64,000 nucleotides of DNA from Escherichia coli 042. Its GTDB lineage: Bacteria > Pseudomonadota > Gammaproteobacteria > Enterobacterales > Enterobacteriaceae. The stretch lies in assembly GCF_000027125.1 (NCBI RefSeq), contig NC_017626.1; one strand, given 5' to 3'. How positions within the stretch are numbered: the first letter of the stretch is position 1; each line of letters starts with the position of its first letter. Made by a program: the position numbers and the translations under genes. Shown one piece after another: positions 2,340-14,065 of this stretch. The notes below the pieces were generated by a model. That model made no database searches. It saw only the letters and a program-made list of their open reading frames with translations, and was not told the origin of the DNA.

Positions 2340-3623
2340 TTACAGACTTCTTGAAGGTTGCGCAGCTGTTACAACACGCGGTTGATCTTCCGCGGCATCT
2401 TCCAGTGCACTTAAATCACGGTCTCTCACTTCTGGCATTTTCAGCGCAGAGATTAAACCAATCACTGAATATGCCATGATCATAATGGCGATCGGATACC
2501 AGGATTCCGTCATGGTGCAGAAAATACCCGCCAGGATAGGACCAAAACCGGAAGCGATAAGACCACCAATTTCTTTAGAAATCGCCATCCGGGTAAAGCG
2601 GTTTTTACAGCCGAACATTTCTGCCATGGTAATGTTTTCCAGAGCAAATAATCCCAGCACCGCACAGTTATGAATCACAATCAGTGCAACCATAATGGTG
2701 CTCGGGGCATAGCTTTTATCTACGATGATAGAAAGCATTGGCCACGCCAGCACAATCGCAGAGGTATTCATAATAATATACGGGATCCGGCGACCTATTT
2801 TATCGGATAACCAACCAAGGAACGGAATGGTCATAAAGCCGAGAATCGAACTGATCATCAATGCATCTGTTGGAATTGCTTTGTTAAACAATAACGTCTG
2901 CACTAAATAGCCTGCAAGGAAAGTCTGAATTAAACCGGAGTTACCAGCCTGACCAAAACGCAGCCCTGTTGCCAGCCAGAAGGATTTGCTCTGGAACATG
3001 CTACCAGCAGGTGCAGGTTTTGCTGTCGGTTGGTTGCTGTCGTTAACCTTCTCAAAGACCGGGCTTTCTTTCAGATTCATACGCAACCAGATAGCAAAGA
3101 CCATCACGACAACGCTCGCCAGGAACGGTATACGCCATCCCCACGCAAGCAGTTCCTCTTTACTGAGAATGAAGAACATAAAGGCCCAGATTGCCGTTGC
3201 GCTCAAGGTTCCGCAGTTAGTCCCCATAGCAACAAATGAGGAGATAATTCCGCGCTTACCTTTTGGTGCATATTCCGCCAGCATCGTGCCGGCACCGGAA
3301 ATTTCCGCGCCTGCCCCCAGCCCCTGAATAATACGCAGCGTCACCAGCAAAATTGGCGCAAACACACCAATTTGTGCATAGGTCGGCAGCACACCAATTA
3401 AGGTAGTACAGATCCCCATCATAGTGATGGTAATAAAGAGCACTTTTTTACGCCCGATTCTGTCGCCCATTTTGCCGAAAATAAATGCTCCGACAATACG
3501 CGCCACATAACCTGCACCGTAGGTTCCCATTGCCAGAATTAACGCCATTGCCGTTGATGATTCAGGAAAAAATATTTCATGAAACACTAACGCTGCGCCG
3601 AGCGAATATAACTGGAAATCCAT
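2340..3623 (-). pseudogene. ydfJ: MFS transporter YdfJ, C-terminal 427 codons; N-terminal ~34 codons separated by the prophage
   Basis: ORF starts MDFQLYSLGAALVF, which is internal to typical MFS N-termini; the missing N-terminus (MTIEKHERSTKDLVKAAVSGWLGTALEFMDF) is encoded at 51200..51310 on the same strand. Confidence 0.85.
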
Positions 3624-4226: not shown

Positions 4227-4340
4227 ATGAACAGCATACTGATAATCACTTCTCTCCTTATCATATTCAGCATTTTTAGTCATGCCCTAATAAAATTAGG
4301 GATTGGCATATCCAATAACCCAGACAAAACCGATGTATAA
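4227..4340 (+). CDS. hypothetical 37-aa hydrophobic peptide ([37 protein letters not shown])
   Basis: ATG preceded by GAGG about 6 nt upstream; single predicted TM helix; below the ORF-track length cutoff. Confidence 0.3.
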
Positions 4341-4408
4341 GTCAACATATCCTGAATCAGACATACAATATCGCAATGAAAATCAATAATATTTTAAGGA
4401 ATATCTTC

Positions 4409-4642
4409 ATGAAATCAAAAGACACCCTAAAGTGGTTCCCTGCGCAGCTTCCTGAAGTAAGAATTATCCTAGGGGATGCTGTAGTGGAAGTAGCAAAACA
4501 GGGAAGACCTATTAATACCAGAACATTGCTTGATTACATTGAAGGAAACATAAAGAAAAAATCATGGCTGGATAACAAAGAATTATTACAAACAGCGATA
4601 TCAGTTCTTAAAGACAACCAAAATTTAAATGGTAAAATGTAA
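4409..4642 (+). CDS. ydfK: Qin prophage small protein YdfK (YnaE/YdfK family)
   Basis: ORF 4376..4642; start chosen at MKSKDTLKWFPAQLPEV to give the 77-aa YdfK length. Confidence 0.75.
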   Translation: MKSKDTLKWFPAQLPEVRIILGDAVVEVAKQGRPINTRTLLDYIEGNIKKKSWLDNKELLQTAISVLKDNQNLNGKM

Positions 4643-4959
4643 TATAATAAACTTACTTTTTTATCATTTTTCCACTTTAACAACATTTTGCTCCACTTTT
4701 CCACGTCCAAACAACTTGAAATCTGGTTAAAATAACACGCAACACTATTCTTCTTCCTTGAGCCCGCCCGGAACTCGAAAAACAAACCGAGTTAAAGCCA
4801 TTTTTCACAAAATCGATTTTGGGTCTCACCAAAAATTACGGGGTTGCATACGCATTCGTTTATTTTCGAACGTGTACATACAAATATGCACAAAAATAAT
4901 CATAATTATTTTCTGAGATGCATTATGATATGAACACCAATTTCGAATAGAGTCTCACT

Positions 4960-5550
4960 ATGTCTCGAATTTTTGCTTACTGTCGGATATCAACGCTGGA
5001 TCAGACCACCGAAAATCAACGCCGGGAAATCGAAAGTGCAGGTTTTAAAATCAAACCTCAGCAAATAATCGAAGAACACATTAGCGGCTCAGCAGCAACC
5101 AGTGAGCGTCCTGGTTTTAACCGGTTGCTTGCTCGCCTGAAATGTGGTGATCAATTGATTGTGACAAAACTGGATCGCCTTGGTTGTAATGCAATGGATA
5201 TCAGGAAAACAGTGGAACAACTGACCGAAACAGGTATCAGAGTGCATTGCTTAGCATTGGGTGGCATTGACCTGACCAGTCCAACAGGAAAAATGATGAT
5301 GCAAGTAATTTCAGCAGTCGCTGAATTTGAACGAGACCTTTTACTTGAACGCACTCATTCCGGGATAGTAAGAGCCCGCGGCGCAGGGAAACGTTTTGGT
5401 CGACCACCTGTGTTAAATGAAGAACAGAAACAGGTGGTATTCGAACGAATTAAGTCAGGTGTAAGTATAAGTGCCATTGCCCGGGAATTCAAAACCTCGC
5501 GGCAAACCATTTTAAGAGCCAAAGCAAAACTTCAGACACCTGACATATAA
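4960..5550 (+). CDS. pinQ: serine recombinase, DNA invertase Pin (Hin/Gin/Cin family)
   Basis: 196-aa [23 protein letters not shown]...; catalytic Ser region and C-terminal HTH; adjacent to tail-fibre genes. Confidence 0.9.
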
Positions 5551-5647
5551 AAAATAATCTCGGTGTGAGATGCTTTACGTGTTCCAAGCCCCCTTCCTTG
5601 CCGTAAATGGAAAGATACATCTAATTATAGAATTTATATGTTTTACC

Positions 5648-6223
5648 CTACGGCAGTGCTGGCCATTCAATATCCTGTGCAGTTGACGTATCAACACGGT
5701 TCAGCAATACCCGATACTTTTTCCATGCTTCCAGCAACGAGATTTCTTCCTCCGTTGCAATTTCCAGATCTGCAGCATCCTGAAGCGGCGCAATATGCTC
5801 ACTGGCTACCTGCATCAGGTTGTTTTTTGTTTCTTCCGCCTCCCGGATCCGGAACAGTTTTTCTGCTTCCGTATCCTTCACCCAGGCTGTGCCGTTCCAC
5901 TTCTGAAACTCCCCTTCCGGCGATAACCAGGTAACATTTTCCGGTAACGGACCGAGTTCAGAAATAAATAACGCGTCGCCGGAAGCCACGTCATAGACGG
6001 TTTTTCCCCGATGATCTTCAACGAGATGCCACGATGCCTCATCACTGTTGAAAACAGCCACGAAGCCTGCCGGAATATCTGGCGGTGCAATATCGGTACT
6101 GTTTGCTGGCAGACCTGTATGAGGCGGAATATATGCGTCACCTTCACCAATAAATTCATTAGTTCCGGCCAGCAGATTATAAATTTTTATGGTCTGTGGT
6201 TGTTCACTCATTCTGAATGCCAT
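5648..6223 (-). CDS. tfaQ: tail fibre assembly protein (Tfa)
   Basis: 191-aa ORF immediately downstream of and overlapping stf; Tfa-like sequence. Confidence 0.85.
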
Positions 6224-9192
6224 TATGCAAGCCTCACAATATAGTTAAATGCGATGTTTTTGACGGTGTTTTCCGCGTTACCAGCAGCGTTAACGGTGAT
6301 GGTGTGTCCATGTGAACCAATCGCAACGGAGTGCGTATGAGCACCAATACCGACAGTATGTGCATGTGCGCCTGCGCTTGCAGCAGTGCCGGACAGCGAG
6401 TGGGTATGAGCACCATCTGATGATGTCTTCCCTGCATTACGAGTCTGGCCACTACCGCTTGTTGTGCTCATAATCCCCGCGCTTAGATTTGAAATCGCGG
6501 TATAACCATTAGGGAAAATGCTCGTGTTCGTGCCACCAAATGCACCGGAACTCTTGTGTTGGTGCGCACCGGCACTATTTGCAGTCCCGCTAATACTATG
6601 GGTATGCGCCCCGGTGTTATTCGTGGATTTGGTTCCGTAATCAAACGACGATGTGTTTTTCGTCCCCAAATCCGTACTGGATGCGCTGGCGCTGTGGGTG
6701 TGCGATTTAATGCCGTCCTGTTCCTGAGACAATACGGCACGACCACTGGCGGGTTTGCCCTTAATCGTCCAGCCACGCATATCAGGGATCACGCCTGACG
6801 GATAAGCGGCTGCAAGTTTCGGGTATGCAGATTTGTCAAAAGTCTGCCCCTGCATCAGGGCATAGCCAGACGGAACGGTATCTGATGGCCACGGGATTGG
6901 TGCGCCAGGCGGATAAAACTGCTCTGATGGCGTATAGAGTGAATAAACTGTACCGTCCGTTAACCCTTCCGGCTTATTAGCAGAATATGCTGGTGACGTA
7001 TGAATCGTCACGCTGGCATTACTGGTATAATCCCATTGAATATTTACACCAGTCGCATAATTTCCGATTGCAACGTAAATATCGTAAGTATCACCAGATG
7101 TATTGACCCAGGCAAAATTTGTAAACCCTGTCGATGTGCGCTGCCATAAAGCACCAGTAATCCCCTTCGGATTACCATTACCTGCACGCAAAACAAGTTC
7201 AGATATACCTGCCTGTTGAGGTGACCCCACGTTAAATCCCGCGCCACCAATCAACGTAATTGAAACAACAGAACTCGCCTGTGGCATGGTTACCGTTGCT
7301 AATTTGAACCAACCAGCACCACCGCTGAATGACATTGTTGTTGAGTTAAGCGTACCAATATCTTTCGGCGTCAGTGTTATATCCGCTGAAAGCGCCTTAC
7401 CATTCACCTTACGGGCAGAAGGTACCCGACCATTCGCATTATCATTAGCTGCTTTCACTGCTTTCGGTGTCGCGGCAAGCGTTTCAGATGCGCTGTTGGT
7501 TGCACTACTGAGCTGGACAATTCCTTTTTGTGCTGTCGTAGCGTTCTGAGCAGTATATTTCCCGTTAGCAAGGTCATAGGCTGCCTTTACCGACTTTGGC
7601 GTTGCCGCCAGCATTTCAGATGTGCTGTTGGTCGCGTTGCTAAGCTGAACTATCCCTTTCTGTGCTGTCGTTGCATCCTGTGCGGTGTATTTCCCGTTAG
7701 CCAGCTCATACGCGGCCTTAACGGCTTTTGGTGTTGCCGCCAGTGACTCGGAAGTGCTGTTAGTCGCACTGCTGAGCTGTACTATCCCCTTTTTCGTCGT
7801 GCTCGCATCCTCAAGCGCGACGGCGGATGCAATATCCTCTGCCCGTTTTGCCGCTGTCTCGGCGCGCGTTGCCGCGGATTCCGCCGTACTTTTGCTCTGA
7901 GCTGCCGCCGTCGCACTGCCAGCTGCCTCTGTCGCCTTCGTGGATGCCGTCGTGGCGCTGCCCTTTGCTGCTGACGCCTGTCTGGTCGCCTCATCTTTTG
8001 AAGCAGACGCAGATAATGCCGATGACGCCGCCGAACTGGCGGACGATGCGGCAGCCGTTTTTGAGGATTCTGCGCTGGTTTCCGACGCTTTCGCGTTCGT
8101 CTCGGATGTCTTCGCTGCGGAAGCAGACCTCGCTGCTGCGCTGGCCTGTACAGCGGCTTCGCCAGCCTTCGTTGTGGCTGTTGAAGCGGACGATGCAGCA
8201 CTTTCTGCCGATTTTCCGGCGGCGGTGGCACTGGCTGAGGCCTGCCCGGCATTTGTTGACGCGGCGCTGGCAGATGAGGCAGCCGCTGTTTTTGAGTCTG
8301 CTGCTGCGGAGGCACTCTGTGCTGCTGCCGTCTCAGAAGACTTAGCGTTCGTCTCGGACGTTTTTGCCGCCTTCGCGGAATTTCCTGCCGCTGTTGCCGA
8401 GGAGGCTGCACTACTGGCGCTCGAGGCTGCGCTCGTTTCTGATGATTTTGCCGCCTCTTTTGAGGCCGCCGCATCCCGGGCTGAGGTGGCAGCTTCTGAC
8501 GCCTTCGTGGTCGCGGCGGATGCAGAAGTGGCTGCTGATTGTTGTGACGCTGCCGCATTCGTTTCTGACGTTTTCGCGGCACTGGCACTGGTAGCTGCCG
8601 CGCTTTTTGAGGACTCTGCAGCGGCAGCACTTTTTGATGCTTCAGTAGCCTTTGTTGATGCCGTTCCTGCGCTGGAAGACGCTGACTGAGCCGACGTCGC
8701 GGCCTGCCCGGCTGATGTGCTGGCTGCACGTGCTGAGCCTGCAGCATCAGTCGCATGGGTTGCCGCCTCACGGGCTGATGTGCTGGCATCGCTGGCTGAC
8801 TTCTTCGCGGCTGCTGTGTTCTGCGCCACTGCGGACGCGTTACGCGCCACCTCTTCCACCATCAGTTCAAAACGGCGCAGTGCCTCAGGACGGGCATCAT
8901 CCTCCGTCATGGCACCGAGAAAATCATTCAGCGTACCGGGTCGGGAATCTTCATACACGGTGATGGTCCCGGCATGTGACGGCGGGAATCCTTCCACCAA
9001 CAGAATAACGCTGTACTGACCGTACTCAACGTCCATGCTGTAACGCCCGGCCTCATCCGGATTTTCTGAGGCCAGCGTGTTCACCACCACCGTGGTGCTG
9101 TTACGTTTTGCTTTCAGCTGGATTGTGCAGTTCTGTACCGGTTTTCCTGTGCCGTCTTTCAGTACACCTGAAATCTTTACTGCCATATTCAC
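6223..9192 (-). CDS. stfQ: side tail fibre protein (Stf), 989 aa, with expanded Ala/Ser/Thr-rich repeat region
   Basis: N-terminus [26 protein letters not shown]... like lambda Stf; low-complexity A/S/T-rich stretch; three ~43-aa tandem repeats; His-rich HxH motifs near the C-terminus. Confidence 0.85.
7455..7830. repeat. three tandem ~129-bp repeats inside stf
   Basis: Repeated protein unit TAQ(D/N)[12 protein letters not shown](N/S)ATNS(T/A)SE(M/T)LAATPK(A/S)VKAA seen three times, with matching near-identical DNA blocks. Confidence 0.7.
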
Positions 9193-9202
9193 CCCACAAA
9201 AA

Positions 9203-9222
9203 AGCCCGCCTGAACAGGCGGG
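9203..9222 (-). terminator. hairpin plus T-run downstream of lom (minus strand)
   Basis: gcccgcctgaacaggcgggc stem-loop followed by a T-run on the minus strand. Confidence 0.45.
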
Positions 9223-9250
9223 CTGTCATAACACTGTGTTACCTGGCTAA

Positions 9251-9850
9251 TCAGAACTTATAACCGACACCCACGATGAAACCGTCAGTGCGCCAGTCGC
9301 CACTGCCGGAGCCTTCATAAGCAATATCAATGGCCACGGATTCGGTCGGGTTAAACTGCACGCCAGCTCCCCACGCCAGAGACGTGTTGCTGTGGCGACC
9401 GTCATCACTTCCGGTCAGCACGTCGTGCGTTTTCCCCTTGTTGTCAGTTACGCGGAGATAATCCCCGGAGAAAGTCGACACACGGCTGTAAGCCACACCC
9501 GCCATCGCATACGCGCTGAACCATTCATTCACGCGCACAGACGGCCCCACCATCACGCTGAACCAGCGGTTACGCACGGAATCTTCATGCCAGCGGGTAT
9601 CGCTGTAACGGGTAAGCTGGCGATTCTTGTCTCCTGCATAGCTGAATGACGTCACCAGCCCCAGTGTGTCCGTAAACTCATAACGGTATTTCACGTTAAT
9701 CCCGTTAAGATCATCGCTGCCGGGAACGTTCGTCGAGGCATGAAGATACCCCGCGCTCAGCGTGGACTGATGTTCAGATGCCCATGCAGGCGCACCGGAT
9801 ACGGCCAGACAAATGGCTGCGGACAAAATGGCGGCATAAAGTTTACGCAT
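9251..9850 (-). CDS. lom: Lom-like outer membrane protein (Ail/Lom family)
   Basis: 199-aa ORF with signal peptide and beta-barrel-like C-terminal ...GVGYKF; position after J as in lambda. Confidence 0.85.
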
Positions 9851-9876
9851 AATTACCTCTCGCTTTTCTGCAATAA

Positions 9877-9900
9877 AAAAGGCACCATTTCTGGTGCCCT
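9877..9900 (-). terminator. hairpin plus T-run downstream of J (minus strand)
   Basis: ggcaccatttctggtgcc stem followed by T-run on the minus strand. Confidence 0.4.
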
Positions 9901-9919
9901 TATATGGGTTATAACAATT

Positions 9920-12900
9920 TCAACGAATACTGATGCCGGAAGCGGCTTTTTTGGTCACAATCACCGTACAGTCGGTGATATTACCTGCCCACTGATTGCC
10001 TTTATGGAAAACCTTAAACTCCAGAGTGACGCTTCCCCTGCCACTCGGCATATCAATAACCGCACTGTAGCTACCGGGAATGGCCCCTTTAGTTTCTCTG
10101 GATGCGATTAATACACCGTTTTGGCGAACTTCAAAACCATAACCCGTGTATCTTGTACCTCCCGGGTTATTACCACTTCCCGGATCGCTATACGCTATTC
10201 CGTTAAAGATAATGGGCGGAATAATGATTTGACGGTCAAAGTTATGATCATCGCTTATGGTGACTGTAACCGTCCCGTTTGGTGTTTCCGTGTTACCCCA
10301 CGTACCAGCCTGTTTCGGAAATGATTTGGATACAGCTTTAACGAAATCCCCTCTGACCTGAGTCGCCTCCAGCATGCCCTTAATCGTACAGTTTTCATTT
10401 ACCGTGACATTGTTGAGCGTCCCGGCGTTCGCATTCACACTGCCACTGATATCCGCATTTTTAGCGGTCAGCTTTCCGTCTGATGTCAGGGAAAATACCG
10501 GTGGATTTCCACCGCTGGTAATGGTGGGGGCCGTCAGGCGCTTCAGGAACACGTCGTTCATGAATATCTGGTTGCCCTGCGCCACAAACATCGGCGTTTC
10601 ATTCCCGTTTGCCGGATCAATAAACGCGATACGATTGGCGGCAACCAGAAACTGGCTCAGTTTGCCTTCCTCTGTATCCTCCATGCTGAGGCCAATACCC
10701 GCGACATAATGTTTGCCGTCTTTGGTCTGCTCAATTTTGACGCCCCACATGGCATTCCACTTATCGTTAGCATCCTTCCACTCTTTCGAAAACTGCTCCA
10801 GTCTGCTGGCGTTATCCTCCGTCAGGTCGACTTTTTCCAGCAGCTCTTTACCGAGATGGGATTCGGTTATCAGGCCTTTGAAAAAATCCAGGTAACCTTC
10901 GGCATCATCGCTCGCCCGACCAACAGCCTCCACGAATGCCGATTTGCCAACGGTGTTCACACTGCGAACGTAAAAATAATAATTATGGCCCGGCCTGATA
11001 TTGATACTGGCGGCTATCCAGTACAGCGCCGTGCCAAGATAGCGTGCTGTGGTTTCAACCTGCCTGATATCCGCAATCCGCTTTTCCGAGAACCAGAACT
11101 CAAACTGTACCGTCGGGTCATAAACCGCAAGATGCGGCGTGGCGGTTATCTGAAAATAGCCCGGCGTCAGCTCAATCCGCGACGGCGCTGCCGGTGCGGC
11201 AATCCGGAACGATACCGACGCCGGATCGCCCTGCTGCTCCCACGCATTTACTGCCCGGACTGTCAGCCTGTAGTTCCCCAGAGCCAGTTGTGTGAAGCGG
11301 TAAGTGGTTTCCGTCGTCCGGGCCGTGCTGACCAGCCGCTCACTGCCGTCATCCGCTGCCACGGTCAGGCGAAGCATGAAACTCACGCCCTTCACCACCT
11401 TCGGCGTGTCCCAGCGGGCCAGTACCTGATACTCCCCGCTGTCTGCGGTGACTTCGGCAGTCAGGTGCTGCACTGCTGGCGGCGTGACACCATTCACCGT
11501 GCCGCTCTGGTCGCCGTCAAAGTGCGCCCCGTTATCCACGATAGCTTCTTTTTCCGGTACATGCTGCACGGCGGTGATGGCATACGTGCCGTCGTCGTTC
11601 TCACGGATACTCACGCAGCGGAACAGGCGCTGGCGCAGCGTCGGCAGCTTCAGCCCCCATACGCTGTATCCGGCAACGCCGTCAGGAACACGGCTCACTT
11701 TTACCTTCACGCCGTCGGTGACGGACTGGACCTCCACGCTGACCGGATTGCCACTTCCGTCAACCAGGCTTATCAGCGTGGTACCGGAGGATGGCAGCGT
11801 GATTTCACGGTCGAGCGTCAGCGTCCGGGTCTGGCTGTTCACCGCCAGCACGCGCCCGCCGGTGCTGATCCCCGCATAGTCATCATCGCAGATTTCAATG
11901 ACATCGCCCGGCACATGGCGAAGCCCTTCCGCACCCACGCTGAAGTCCACGGTCTGCGTTTCCAGTAGTTCCGTTTTAATCAGCCACAGCCCGGCGCGGT
12001 GCGCCTGCCCCCGGCTGGTACAGCCAAAGGCATCCATCTTCGTGACGTTACGACCGTAACGGAGAATGGCCTGCGTATCTTCAACAAGCTCTGTCGCCGT
12101 CTCCCAGCCGTTATCCGGGTCAATCCAGTTCACCTCAACGGCATTATGACGGTCCTTCAGGGCACTGAAGCTGTAGCGGAACGGCGCGCCATCATCCGGC
12201 ATCACCACATTACTGCGGTTATAGGTCCACACCTTATCCGACGGTCGGTCCTGCACGAACGTCAGCGTCTGCCCGTTCCATACCGGCATACAGCGCATCG
12301 CCGAGCAGAAATCACTGAGAACATCCCACGCCTTGCGCTGTGTGGTCAGGTAGGCATTACAGGTGATGCGCGGCTCCGTGCCACCAAAGCCATCCGGCAC
12401 CGACTGGTCGCAATTCTGGCCGATGACATACAGCGCCCATTTGTCCACATCCGCCGCACCGAGACGCTTCCCCATGCCGTAGCGCGGATGGGTCAGCATA
12501 TCCCACAGACACCAGGCCATGTTGTTGCTGTATGCTGGCTTAAACGTTCCGTCCCAGATACCGCTGTATTGCCGCGTCTGCGGGTTATAGTTCGACGGCA
12601 CCTGCAGAATGCGCCCGCGAAGATGATAATTACGGCTCACCTGCTGGCTGCCGAACTGTTCCGAGTCCACCTGCACGCCGACCAGTGCCGTGTTCGGGTA
12701 GCACTGTTTCACATCGATGATTTCGGTGTATGACGACCAGAGCGTTTTGTTCTGCAGCTGGTCTGTGGTGCTGTCCGGCGTCATCCTGCGCATCCGGATA
12801 TTAAACGGGCGCGGCGGCAGGTTACCCACCACCACCGAGGCCAGATACTGCGAGGTGGTTTTGCCCTTAATGGTGATGTCTTTTTCCGTCACCCAGCCAC

Positions 12901-13333
12901 CGTTACGCTGTATCTGAACCAGCAGACGGACTTCCGACGGATTCCTGTCACCCTTTGAGGTGGTTTCCACCAGTGCCTGTACACCGAAGGTAAAGCGCAG
13001 TCGGTCGATGTTTGCCGACGTGATGGCGCGGGTGATCGGCGTGTCGTATTTCACTTCCGTACCCAACACCGTCTCGGAGCCGGAGGATTCAAATCCCTCC
13101 GGCGGAGTCTGCTCCTGCTCACCAGCCCGGAACACCACCGTGACACCGGCGATGTTGGTATTCCCATCACTGTCCAGCACCGGCGTACTGTTCAGCAGCA
13201 CGCTTTTTAATCCATCCACCGGACCTTCAATCGGCCCTTCACTGATGGCATCAATCACACTCAGCAACTGCGTGGACTTCAGGTTGTCCTTCGCTTCGCG
13301 CGGGGTATGCCCCTTACTGCTTCCTTTACCCAT
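9920..13333 (-). CDS. J: tail tip host-specificity protein J
   Basis: 1137-aa ORF; length and order (I-J-lom) as in lambda. Confidence 0.95.
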
Positions 13334-13393: not shown

Positions 13394-14065
13394 TCAGCGA
13401 CCAATCACCACAACCTGACCACCGTCCCCTTCGTCTGCCGTGCTGATCTCCTGAGAAACCACGCGTGACCCCACGCGCATTTCCCCGTACAGAACAGGCA
13501 GAACATTGCCCTGGGCAACCATGTTATCCAGTGAGGAGAAATAGGTGTTCTGCTTACCGTTATCCGTTGTCTGTGTACGGGGAGTTCTGGCTTTCGGTGC
13601 CAGCATCTGCGCCACACCACCGAGCACCATACTGGCACCGAGAGAAAACAGGATGCCGGTCATACCACCGGCCCCAATGGCTGCCCCCCATGCTGCAAGG
13701 GTGGCTCCGGCGGTAAAGAATGATCCGGCAATGGCGGCAGCCCCCAGGACAATCTGGAATACGCCACCTGACTTGGCCCCGGCGACTCTGGGAACAATAT
13801 GAATCACAGCGCCATCAGGCAGAGTCTCATGTAACTGCGCCGTTAACCCGGACGTGCTGACGTCCCGCCCGGCAATCCGTACCTGATACCAGCCGTCGCT
13901 CAGTTTCTGACGAAACGCCGGGAGCTGTGTGGCCAGTGCCCGGATGGCTTCAGCCCCCGTTTTCACACGAAGGTCGATGCGGCGACCAAATCGTTGTAAA
14001 TCCCCGTAAAGGCAGATGCGCGCCATGCCCGGTGACGCCAGAGGGAGTGTGTGCGTCGCTGCCAT
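13394..14065 (-). CDS. I: tail assembly protein I
   Basis: 223 aa, same length as lambda gpI; overlaps K by ~100 bp as in lambda. Confidence 0.9.
   Translation of the reverse strand: MAATHTLPLASPGMARICLYGDLQRFGRRIDLRVKTGAEAIRALATQLPAFRQKLSDGWYQVRIAGRDVSTSGLTAQLHETLPDGAVIHIVPRVAGAKSGGVFQIVLGAAAIAGSFFTAGATLAAWGAAIGAGGMTGILFSLGASMVLGGVAQMLAPKARTPRTQTTDNGKQNTYFSSLDNMVAQGNVLPVLYGEMRVGSRVVSQEISTADEGDGGQVVVIGR

Follow-up and report, generated by a model that had tools for sequence, protein, structure and literature searches.

In Mu (G/Gin), P1 (C/Cin) and e14 (P/Pin), a small serine recombinase gene lies beside the fibre and fibre assembly genes of the prophage, and an invertase next to fibre genes is the rule in these three. 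The Hin/Gin/Cin/Pin invertases are approximately 60-70% identical among themselves. Their systems comprise two inverted 26-bp crossover sites (12-2-12, ..AAACC NN GGTTT..) and a Fis-dependent enhancer within the 5' end of the invertase gene. In the Tn3-family transposons, small serine recombinases are found in another setting. In Tn3 and gamma-delta, res lies between tnpA and tnpR and is made up of three subsites for dimer binding just in front of tnpR; the terminal repeats are about 38-40 bp long and begin with GGGG, and a 5-bp target duplication is the hallmark of transposition. Here we analyse pinQ, a small serine recombinase gene beside the tail fibre genes of a Qin-type lambdoid prophage, in a 64,000-nucleotide stretch of the Escherichia coli 042 chromosome (contig NC_017626.1; hereafter the window, numbered from its first letter). 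We conclude that pinQ is very probably the stranded resolvase gene of a Tn3-family transposon, that it never governed an invertible fibre segment and that nothing flips in cis here.

The locus as such is not new. The Qin and Rac prophages of E. coli K-12 and viable lambdoid phages already show the pin-tfa-stf arrangement. What is new is the origin from a transposon, with the scars that it left, and the replacement of a catalytic arginine by cysteine. In the literature searched, no paper was found that ties PinQ or PinR to Tn3-family resolvases. The long-standing gene name is misleading, as 'Pin' implies inversion of the P-segment type, and with the gene seen as a stranded resolvase it is no longer anomalous that an invertible segment is missing. 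This history can be checked at the terminal repeats, the target duplication and the decayed res site. The name also travels in the opposite direction: annotation pipelines put 'PinR' on transposon resolvases of resistance plasmids.

In the window, pinQ (4960..5550, plus strand) encodes a protein of 196 amino acids and is, on our reading, the tnpR-type gene of a transposon relic. It is convergent with tfaQ (5648..6223, minus strand; 191 amino acids, Caudo_TAP), which encodes a lambda-type tail fibre assembly protein, and the two genes face each other with their 3' ends at a distance of 97 bp. Stf, a full-length lambda-type side tail fibre protein, is encoded next to it (6223..9186, minus strand; 987 amino acids). 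The sequence-only reading had described these three genes correctly with respect to position, except that the program-called stf frame (6223-9192, minus strand) opens with GTG, and the ATG at 9186 (MAVKISG...) is likely the true start, being the annotated stf start in a 99.4% identical genome.

PinQ consists of an N-terminal catalytic domain (Pfam Resolvase, E = 2.5e-36) and a C-terminal helix-turn-helix (HTH) domain (HTH_7, E = 3.8e-11); no NCBIfam family reached its cut-off for PinQ, Tfa or Stf. Its identity to e14 PinE is 38%, and the invertases of e14, Mu and P1 belong to a different recombinase lineage. The nearest relatives outside prophages are resolvases of Tn3-family transposons, with 77-85% identity, and the label of a Pin-family invertase under which the gene had been read does not hold. 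In a phage collection, PinQ identity was 99-100% for E. coli lambdoid phages, 61% for one Erwinia phage and below 45% for true Gin/Pin-type invertases. A large protein database and about 1650 plasmid records revealed a dense PinQ family at 60-85% identity. Three of its members (P0100, 78%; P0084, 80%; P0073, 79%) lie approximately 160 bp from, and divergent to, the gene of a 994-aa protein with DUF4158 and DDE_Tnp_Tn3 domains, which scores 1210 bits on the NCBIfam model 'Tn3 family transposase'. The outer flanks of units of this type vary from place to place, and three copies occur in one Shewanella baltica genome, where the tnpA-tnpR units measure about 3.8 kb. Next to the 85% homologue on pRM10386-2, RefSeq annotates a 'Tn3 family transposase, frameshifted'. 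These transposon relatives end in inverted repeats of 40 bp, GGGGTCCGCTTGGAAAACGGAAAATATCC[C/T]ACGCTAAG, and are flanked by perfect 5-bp duplications: TTTTA in the pRM10386-2 element of 3814 bp and TAGAT in a Shewanella element of 9428 bp. Because of this genomic context, namely a divergent Tn3 transposase gene, terminal repeats and target duplications, the PinQ lineage is the TnpR resolvase of one group of Tn3-family transposons; the assignment rests on context and not on sequence class.

The 61% homologue of Erwinia phage LS-2018a (L004:8880-9606) lies between the genes for the large terminase and the portal protein and beside a tyrosine integrase gene, with no Tn3 transposase noticed nearby. 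It has its own res-like array, with TGTACTAAA half-sites at the family offsets. We considered this locus as an ancestral invertible system and rejected it, given the place of the gene between terminase and portal and the lack of fibre genes in its neighbourhood.

The window carries scars that correspond to the ends of such an element. A left 40-bp terminal inverted repeat relic (4759..4798, plus strand) is identical to GGGGTCCGCTTGGAAAACGGAAAATATCCCACGCTAAGAC at 24 of 40 positions, a value attained once when the 218-bp region upstream was shuffled 5000 times. On the other side of pinQ, a right repeat relic (5557..5593, minus strand) is identical at 28 of 37 aligned positions with one 3-bp gap; its score was reached by none of 2000 shuffles, and it begins 7 bp after the pinQ stop codon, as in the intact pRM10386-2 element. 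The pentamer TTCCT stands directly outside the aligned left repeat (4754..4758) and again at 5594..5598, in the same register as the perfect 5-bp duplications of the two controls (TTTTA in L007, TAGAT in L010). The relic element thus comprises 835 bp (4759-5593), with left repeat, decayed res, tnpR and right repeat in this order. One of the two weak candidate crossover sequences of the sequence-only reading, at 5590-5615, turns out to be the junction of transposon and phage, made up of the end of the right repeat and TTCCT.

Upstream of pinQ lies a putative, decayed res site. In an alignment of the relatives, about 120 bp in front of the start codon are conserved down to 61-62% protein identity and contain six TGT[C/A]CGAAA half-sites at fixed offsets from the ATG. 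The pair at -115/-98 forms a 12-2-12 dyad (e.g. TGACCGAAACCG-GT-CGGTTTCGTACA), the pair at -75/-52 is inverted with a longer spacer, and the pair at -34/-21 lies beside the -10 box. The stretch 4824..4950 of the window (plus strand) is homologous to this region, with half-sites at the relatives' offsets. Subsite I is split, with its left half at 4824-4835, a 21-bp insertion at 4836-4856 and its right half at 4861-4872; the halves of subsite II are located at 4887-4898 and 4907-4918, and subsite III, at about 4928-4949, overlaps a -10-like TATGAT. Each half-site has at least two core mismatches (GTAC/GGAC changed to GAAC, GAGA or GAAT). On a half-site weight matrix, the subsite I dyad scores 8.5 bits as compared to 25-35 bits in the relatives, whose high scores are partly by construction, the matrix having been built from these relatives themselves; this tempers the contrast and to that extent counts against our reading. 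A second, res-like partner site was sought throughout the 64 kb, and the best subsite I-like dyad away from the stretch upstream of pinQ, with 9.7 bits at an unrelated position, was rejected. The recognition-helix and HTH region of PinQ is nearly unchanged as compared to TTRQTILRVR of the relatives, so that the changes in the res site are not compensated in the protein. A promoter and terminator scan of 4600-5750 gave nothing informative.

With a res-homologous stretch directly upstream, overlapping a probable promoter, and with an open reading frame (ORF) that is under purifying selection and kept in viable phages, PinQ might be thought to work still as a resolvase at this site, resolving phage or prophage dimers or tandem lysogens, in the way plasmid-borne relatives may resolve dimers. 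The state of the site makes this very unlikely. Its crossover subsite is interrupted, its half-sites are mutated with no matching change in the recognition helix, the catalytic arginine is a cysteine, and in subsites II and III the decay has taken a different course in each of two prophage lineages.

The arginine in question corresponds to R71 of the Tn3 and gamma-delta resolvases. In PinQ this position is Cys76, encoded by TGT (5185..5187, plus strand), where the transposon relatives have CGT. In our alignment, PinQ reads LDRLGC, and seven relatives, PinE and gamma-delta resolvase read LDRLGR; HMMER alignments to the solved structures of Gin and gamma-delta resolvase independently place the cysteine in this column. 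The catalytic residues in Tn3 numbering are Y6, R8, S10, D36, R68 and R71 (PMC2794168). PinQ retains Y7, R9, S11 and R73, and the position of D36 is a glutamate throughout the PinQ family. For Tn3 resolvase, the substitutions R71A and R71K gave no detectable recombination and an approximately 1000-fold slower cleavage (PMC2794168). A second prophage lineage is represented by P0009, which is 85% identical to PinQ, lies beside tfa, has the same 21-bp insertion and repeat relic and shares the cysteine; the Arg-to-Cys change is therefore old.

The comparison of PinQ with P0009 also informs about selection. The two genes differ by 26 synonymous and 32 non-synonymous substitutions, corresponding to a ratio of non-synonymous to synonymous rates (dN/dS) of 0.34 with synonymous changes enriched (Fisher p = 1.3e-4). 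Among the transposon-borne genes, dN/dS is about 0.05-0.11, although the more distant pairs are close to saturation at synonymous sites. Clusters of about 2148, 1066 and 374 member sequences all have representatives with an intact ORF. A pinQ that is merely a functionless pseudo-enzyme, hitch-hiking in a successful phage lineage, would suit the loss of tnpA, the decay of res and repeats, the exchanged arginine and a dN/dS 3-7 times that among the transposon-borne relatives. It suits less well a dN/dS significantly below 1, an ORF kept intact in large clusters and in two lineages 15% apart in protein, and deletion and overexpression phenotypes described in a recent report (PMC12529663). We consider such an inert relic unlikely.

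Some alleles appear to be mosaics. P0004-P0008 and a locus of E. coli GCA_910593615.1 (L018:5850-6591) combine a transposon-type 5' part of the gene with a PinQ-type 3' part. They have arginine at position 76 and proximal res half-sites with 0-1 mismatch; the prophage type is found at the 3' end and in the distal res, which contains the 21-bp insertion. They look as if a prophage pinQ and a Tn3-family tnpR on a plasmid had undergone gene conversion. At the L018 locus, an IS66 element also splits tfa.

As compared to the described Tn3-family transposons of the tnpA-res-tnpR type, the window element agrees in the offsets of the res half-sites, in the position of the right repeat after the stop codon and in the 5-bp duplication. 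It deviates from them in several respects: there is no tnpA, identity to the family repeat has dropped to about 60-76%, subsite I of res is interrupted, mutations affect every half-site, and cysteine stands in place of the catalytic arginine. We propose the following history. A Tn3-family transposon would have entered an ancestral lambdoid phage in its non-essential b region, a short distance downstream of tfa and next to the end of the late operon, and would have duplicated the target TTCCT. The element would then have lost tnpA, leaving 835 bp with repeat relics, a decayed res and tnpR; the crossover subsite would have been split by 21 bp, the other half-sites would have mutated and the catalytic arginine would have given way to cysteine. 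As the resolvase of a transposon relic, pinQ would never have governed an invertible tail-fibre segment, and the adjacent stf-tfa pair would be a fixed single side-fibre set of the lambda type. The origin from a transposon, the decay of res, Cys76 and the fixed single fibre set are all read from the DNA itself. In the window prophage, PinQ presumably cannot resolve or invert anything in cis. Today it is probably a DNA-binding protein with weakened catalysis, which moderate purifying selection has preserved for a trans or DNA-binding role, and it would act, if at all, in trans.

Several observations weigh against this reading. By sequence alone, PinQ is about equally distant from invertases and from classical resolvases, with 105 bits against Gin, slightly above the 83 bits against gamma-delta resolvase. 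Identity is as low as 60% in the left repeat relic, where the terminal GGGG reads TGAG. An empty target site, with the flanks joined over a single TTCCT, was found neither in 5426 E. coli genomes nor in 50,697 phage records, which is why the insertion is deduced from its scars. In pin-less phages such as lambda, HK630 and ev099, homology ends at the tfa stop codon. The gene is not decaying freely either; its constraint is relaxed and not gone. Finally, there is no tnpA in the window and no significant remnant of it between ydfK and res, so that the element is best classified as a relic and not as an autonomous member of the Tn3 family; transposition of a mini-element and later deletion of tnpA may both account for this. 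MAFFT had hinted at the 5' end of tnpA at 4643-4832. Local alignments of this stretch were not above shuffles and tblastn found nothing; the interpretation was dropped for the left repeat relic, which covers part of the same bases.

The proximity of a serine recombinase gene to tfa, the historical name 'pin' and the usual neighbourhood of invertase and fibre genes in Mu, P1 and e14 had suggested another interpretation, namely that PinQ is an invertase of the Pin/Gin/Cin type whose segment lost one stf-tfa cassette, and that approximately 5550-7400 may still flip. No match to the Hin/Gin/Cin/Pin crossover consensus with three or fewer mismatches was found anywhere in the window. Within 4300-9400, a repeat finder returned inverted matches of 15-28 nt with 70-87% identity, none of them sensibly placed. 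The two candidate crossover sequences, 5590-5615 and 7395-7430, reach a local inverted score of 14, which is chance level, and the best inverted match of the spacer 5551-5647 against stf scores 20, a value reached by 67 of 200 shuffles. A search for gix/pix-like inverted repeats thus gave no usable pair in the window. A search of the same kind recovered the inverted pair of e14, our positive control: two 21-bp arms with 95% identity, separated by 1797 nt, one of which precedes the pinE start by 62 bp.

The architecture differs from e14 as well. There, two opposed stf/tfa cassettes lie between 21-bp near-perfect inverted repeats, and the 5' end of the invertase gene together with a pix site abuts the invertible segment; the window has one cassette and no such repeats, and it is the 3' end of pinQ that faces tfa. 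By tblastn with Tfa, Stf, e14 TfaE/TfaP and PinQ, a single tfa, a single stf and a single pin are present in the whole 64 kb, and no second, opposed fibre or tfa cassette was found, as the sequence-only reading had noticed. A flip of 5550-7400 would merely truncate stf. Kirigo et al. (PMC12529663) report that E. coli genomes show no inversions in Qin or Rac, which agrees with the absence of an invertible segment in the window. Together with the 38% identity to PinE and the transposon end and target duplication at 5590-5598, these data render a degenerate fibre switch hardly credible. It remains correct to call PinQ an orphan in relation to its stf-tfa neighbours, even though it is to be seen as a transposon resolvase and not as an invertase that lost its segment.

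A more serious challenge is the published view that PinQ acts in trans. The 2025 report (Kirigo et al., PMC12529663) names PinQ as the invertase of the 1797-bp P segment of e14, elsewhere in the chromosome, in which case its place beside stf-tfa would be irrelevant to its substrate; the inversion creates a chimeric StfE2, which blocks the adsorption of phage T2. Overproduction of PinQ lifted P inversion from 30% in the wild type to 88%, T2 survivors carried the inversion, and the effect required stfP, stfE and e14 (PMC12529663). These data also count against our reading, and some PinQ activity may survive the Arg-to-Cys change. Moreover, an action in trans is compatible with a transposon origin. 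On the other side, PinQ descends from cointegrate resolvases and not from invertases, and it has cysteine at a position where substitutions in Tn3 resolvase abolish recombination (PMC2794168). Table S4 of the report gives 22% P inversion for ΔpinQ, 30% for the wild type and 1.5% for ΔpinE, so that inversion at native levels depends on PinE. Deletion of pinE is said to lock the P segment, yet the main text calls PinQ the dominant invertase, and in the text searched, no mutant of PinQ in the catalytic serine is mentioned (PMC12529663). The e14 pix sites, which lie outside the window, score at most 6.3 bits on the half-site matrix of the PinQ family. That PinQ itself inverts the P segment is therefore possible in our view, though doubtful, and the present analysis raises a specific, testable doubt on this assignment.

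Read side by side, the half-site core of the pix sites (L001:3786-3806 and 5604-5624), TCCCAAACC, resembles the PinQ-family core TCCGAAACC, from which it differs by eye in one base, so that binding of PinQ is conceivable. AAACC and GGTTT are 2 bp apart in pix, as compared to 4 bp in subsite I of the PinQ family, which may allow PinQ binding and not normal synapsis.

An indirect or modulatory effect of PinQ on the P segment may be an alternative to direct catalysis. PinQ and PinR would then be domesticated resolvases, weakly catalytic or non-catalytic, that modulate other inversion switches in trans, and this activity would be the reason why purifying selection has preserved them in E. coli lambdoid phages even though the transposon, a functional res and a catalytic arginine were lost; PinQ might bind to pix-like sites or form mixed complexes with PinE and thereby bias the e14 P segment. 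We hold this to be improbable on present grounds. If true, a pseudo-recombinase carried by a prophage would be connected to phage-defence phenotypes.

Concerning its wider context, the window comprises a Qin-type lambdoid prophage of E. coli, entered from the chromosomal genes ydfI (790-2250) and ydfJ (2340-3623). On the left, the relic is followed outwards by ydfK (4409..4642, plus strand), a cold shock protein gene of the phage b region that lies outside the transposon relic. On the right, stf is followed by lom (9251-9850) and J (9920-13333). The single stf-tfa set is an ordinary lambda-type layout and occurs in about half of the complete E. coli genomes. The junction of pin and tfa is present in 2796 of 5426 complete genomes, and at least 1086 of these 5426 genomes carry at least 80% of window 4300-9900. 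Sequenced lambdoid phages such as 2H10, mEp460, HannyBb and Tritos have an identical PinQ at the same position (J, lom, stf, tfa and convergent pin).

In K-12, Qin has the same gene order and orientation as the window (ydfK-pinQ-tfaQ-stfQ), and Rac shows the mirrored layout (stfR-tfaR-pinR-ynaE). K-12 PinQ is 99% identical to the window protein, and the spacers upstream and downstream of pin in Qin and Rac are nearly identical to those of the window, down to the 21-bp insertion and the relics of the repeats. Qin of K-12 lacks the part corresponding to window 6920-28137, which comprises the greater part of stf together with lom, J and all head and tail genes as far as nohA. Its stfQ is a 3' remnant fused near nohA, whereas in the window stf is full length and J, lom and the head and tail genes are present. 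The window prophage, a near-complete Qin-type prophage, is thus far more complete than Qin of K-12. As compared to phage lambda, the window pair shares with Stf/Tfa the place after J and lom and the domains phage_tail_N, Phage_fiber_2, Collar and Caudo_TAP, and the 3' half of tfa is 95% identical in DNA to lambda orf-194. The window Stf differs in its alanine-, serine- and threonine-rich (A/S/T-rich) shaft and its central module, both of the Rac/Qin type.

Stf contains a prophage tail fibre N-terminal domain (phage_tail_N), three Phage_fiber_2 repeats and a Collar domain (Pfam). The low-complexity A/S/T-rich region described in the sequence-only reading is found as a shaft at residues 116-450 or thereabouts (approximately 7837..8838, minus strand), and its tandem repeat exists as well, not as units of about 129 bp at 7455-7830 but as three 132-bp units at 7430..7825 (minus strand), which encode the Phage_fiber_2 repeats. 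Relative to copy 1, identity is 74% for copy 2 and 62% for copy 3. The repeat copies are old and diverged and not the result of a recent expansion; as diverged copies they are poor substrates for slippage. Among the 25 best E. coli matches, none differs in length by a 132-bp unit, and a few differ by +21 or -7 bp. In an alignment of the window Stf with StfR of K-12 and Stf of phage 2H10, the A/S/T-rich tract has the same extent in all three (residues 116-450). The first 505 residues or so are nearly identical, and the last 250 or so, with the collar and a His-rich end, are common to the three proteins. The central module of the window protein (6900-7700, residues of about 505-760) is completely unlike the module of StfR and 2H10, which have one Phage_fiber_2 unit as compared to three in the window. 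Since no match differs by a repeat unit while the central module does, length differences of Stf among related prophages probably arise from mosaic exchange of the central module and not from repeat slippage, which leaves little support for the proposal that the repeats drive length variation. The mosaic joint lies directly after the first Phage_fiber_2 repeat.

A few minor observations concern the flanks and the tail genes. The closest complete genome, NZ_CP035884.1, carries an IS66-family insertion (ISCro1-like; L025:19896-22594) in the tail genes, with none at about 19890 of the window, and is otherwise collinear with the window at 98.5-99.97% identity. In a related genome, ydfJ, which lies beside the prophage end, is annotated as partial with its N-terminus missing. 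The lambda I-like tail assembly gene at window 13394-14065 is intact, with 223 amino acids, and is annotated as frameshifted in a 99% identical relative.

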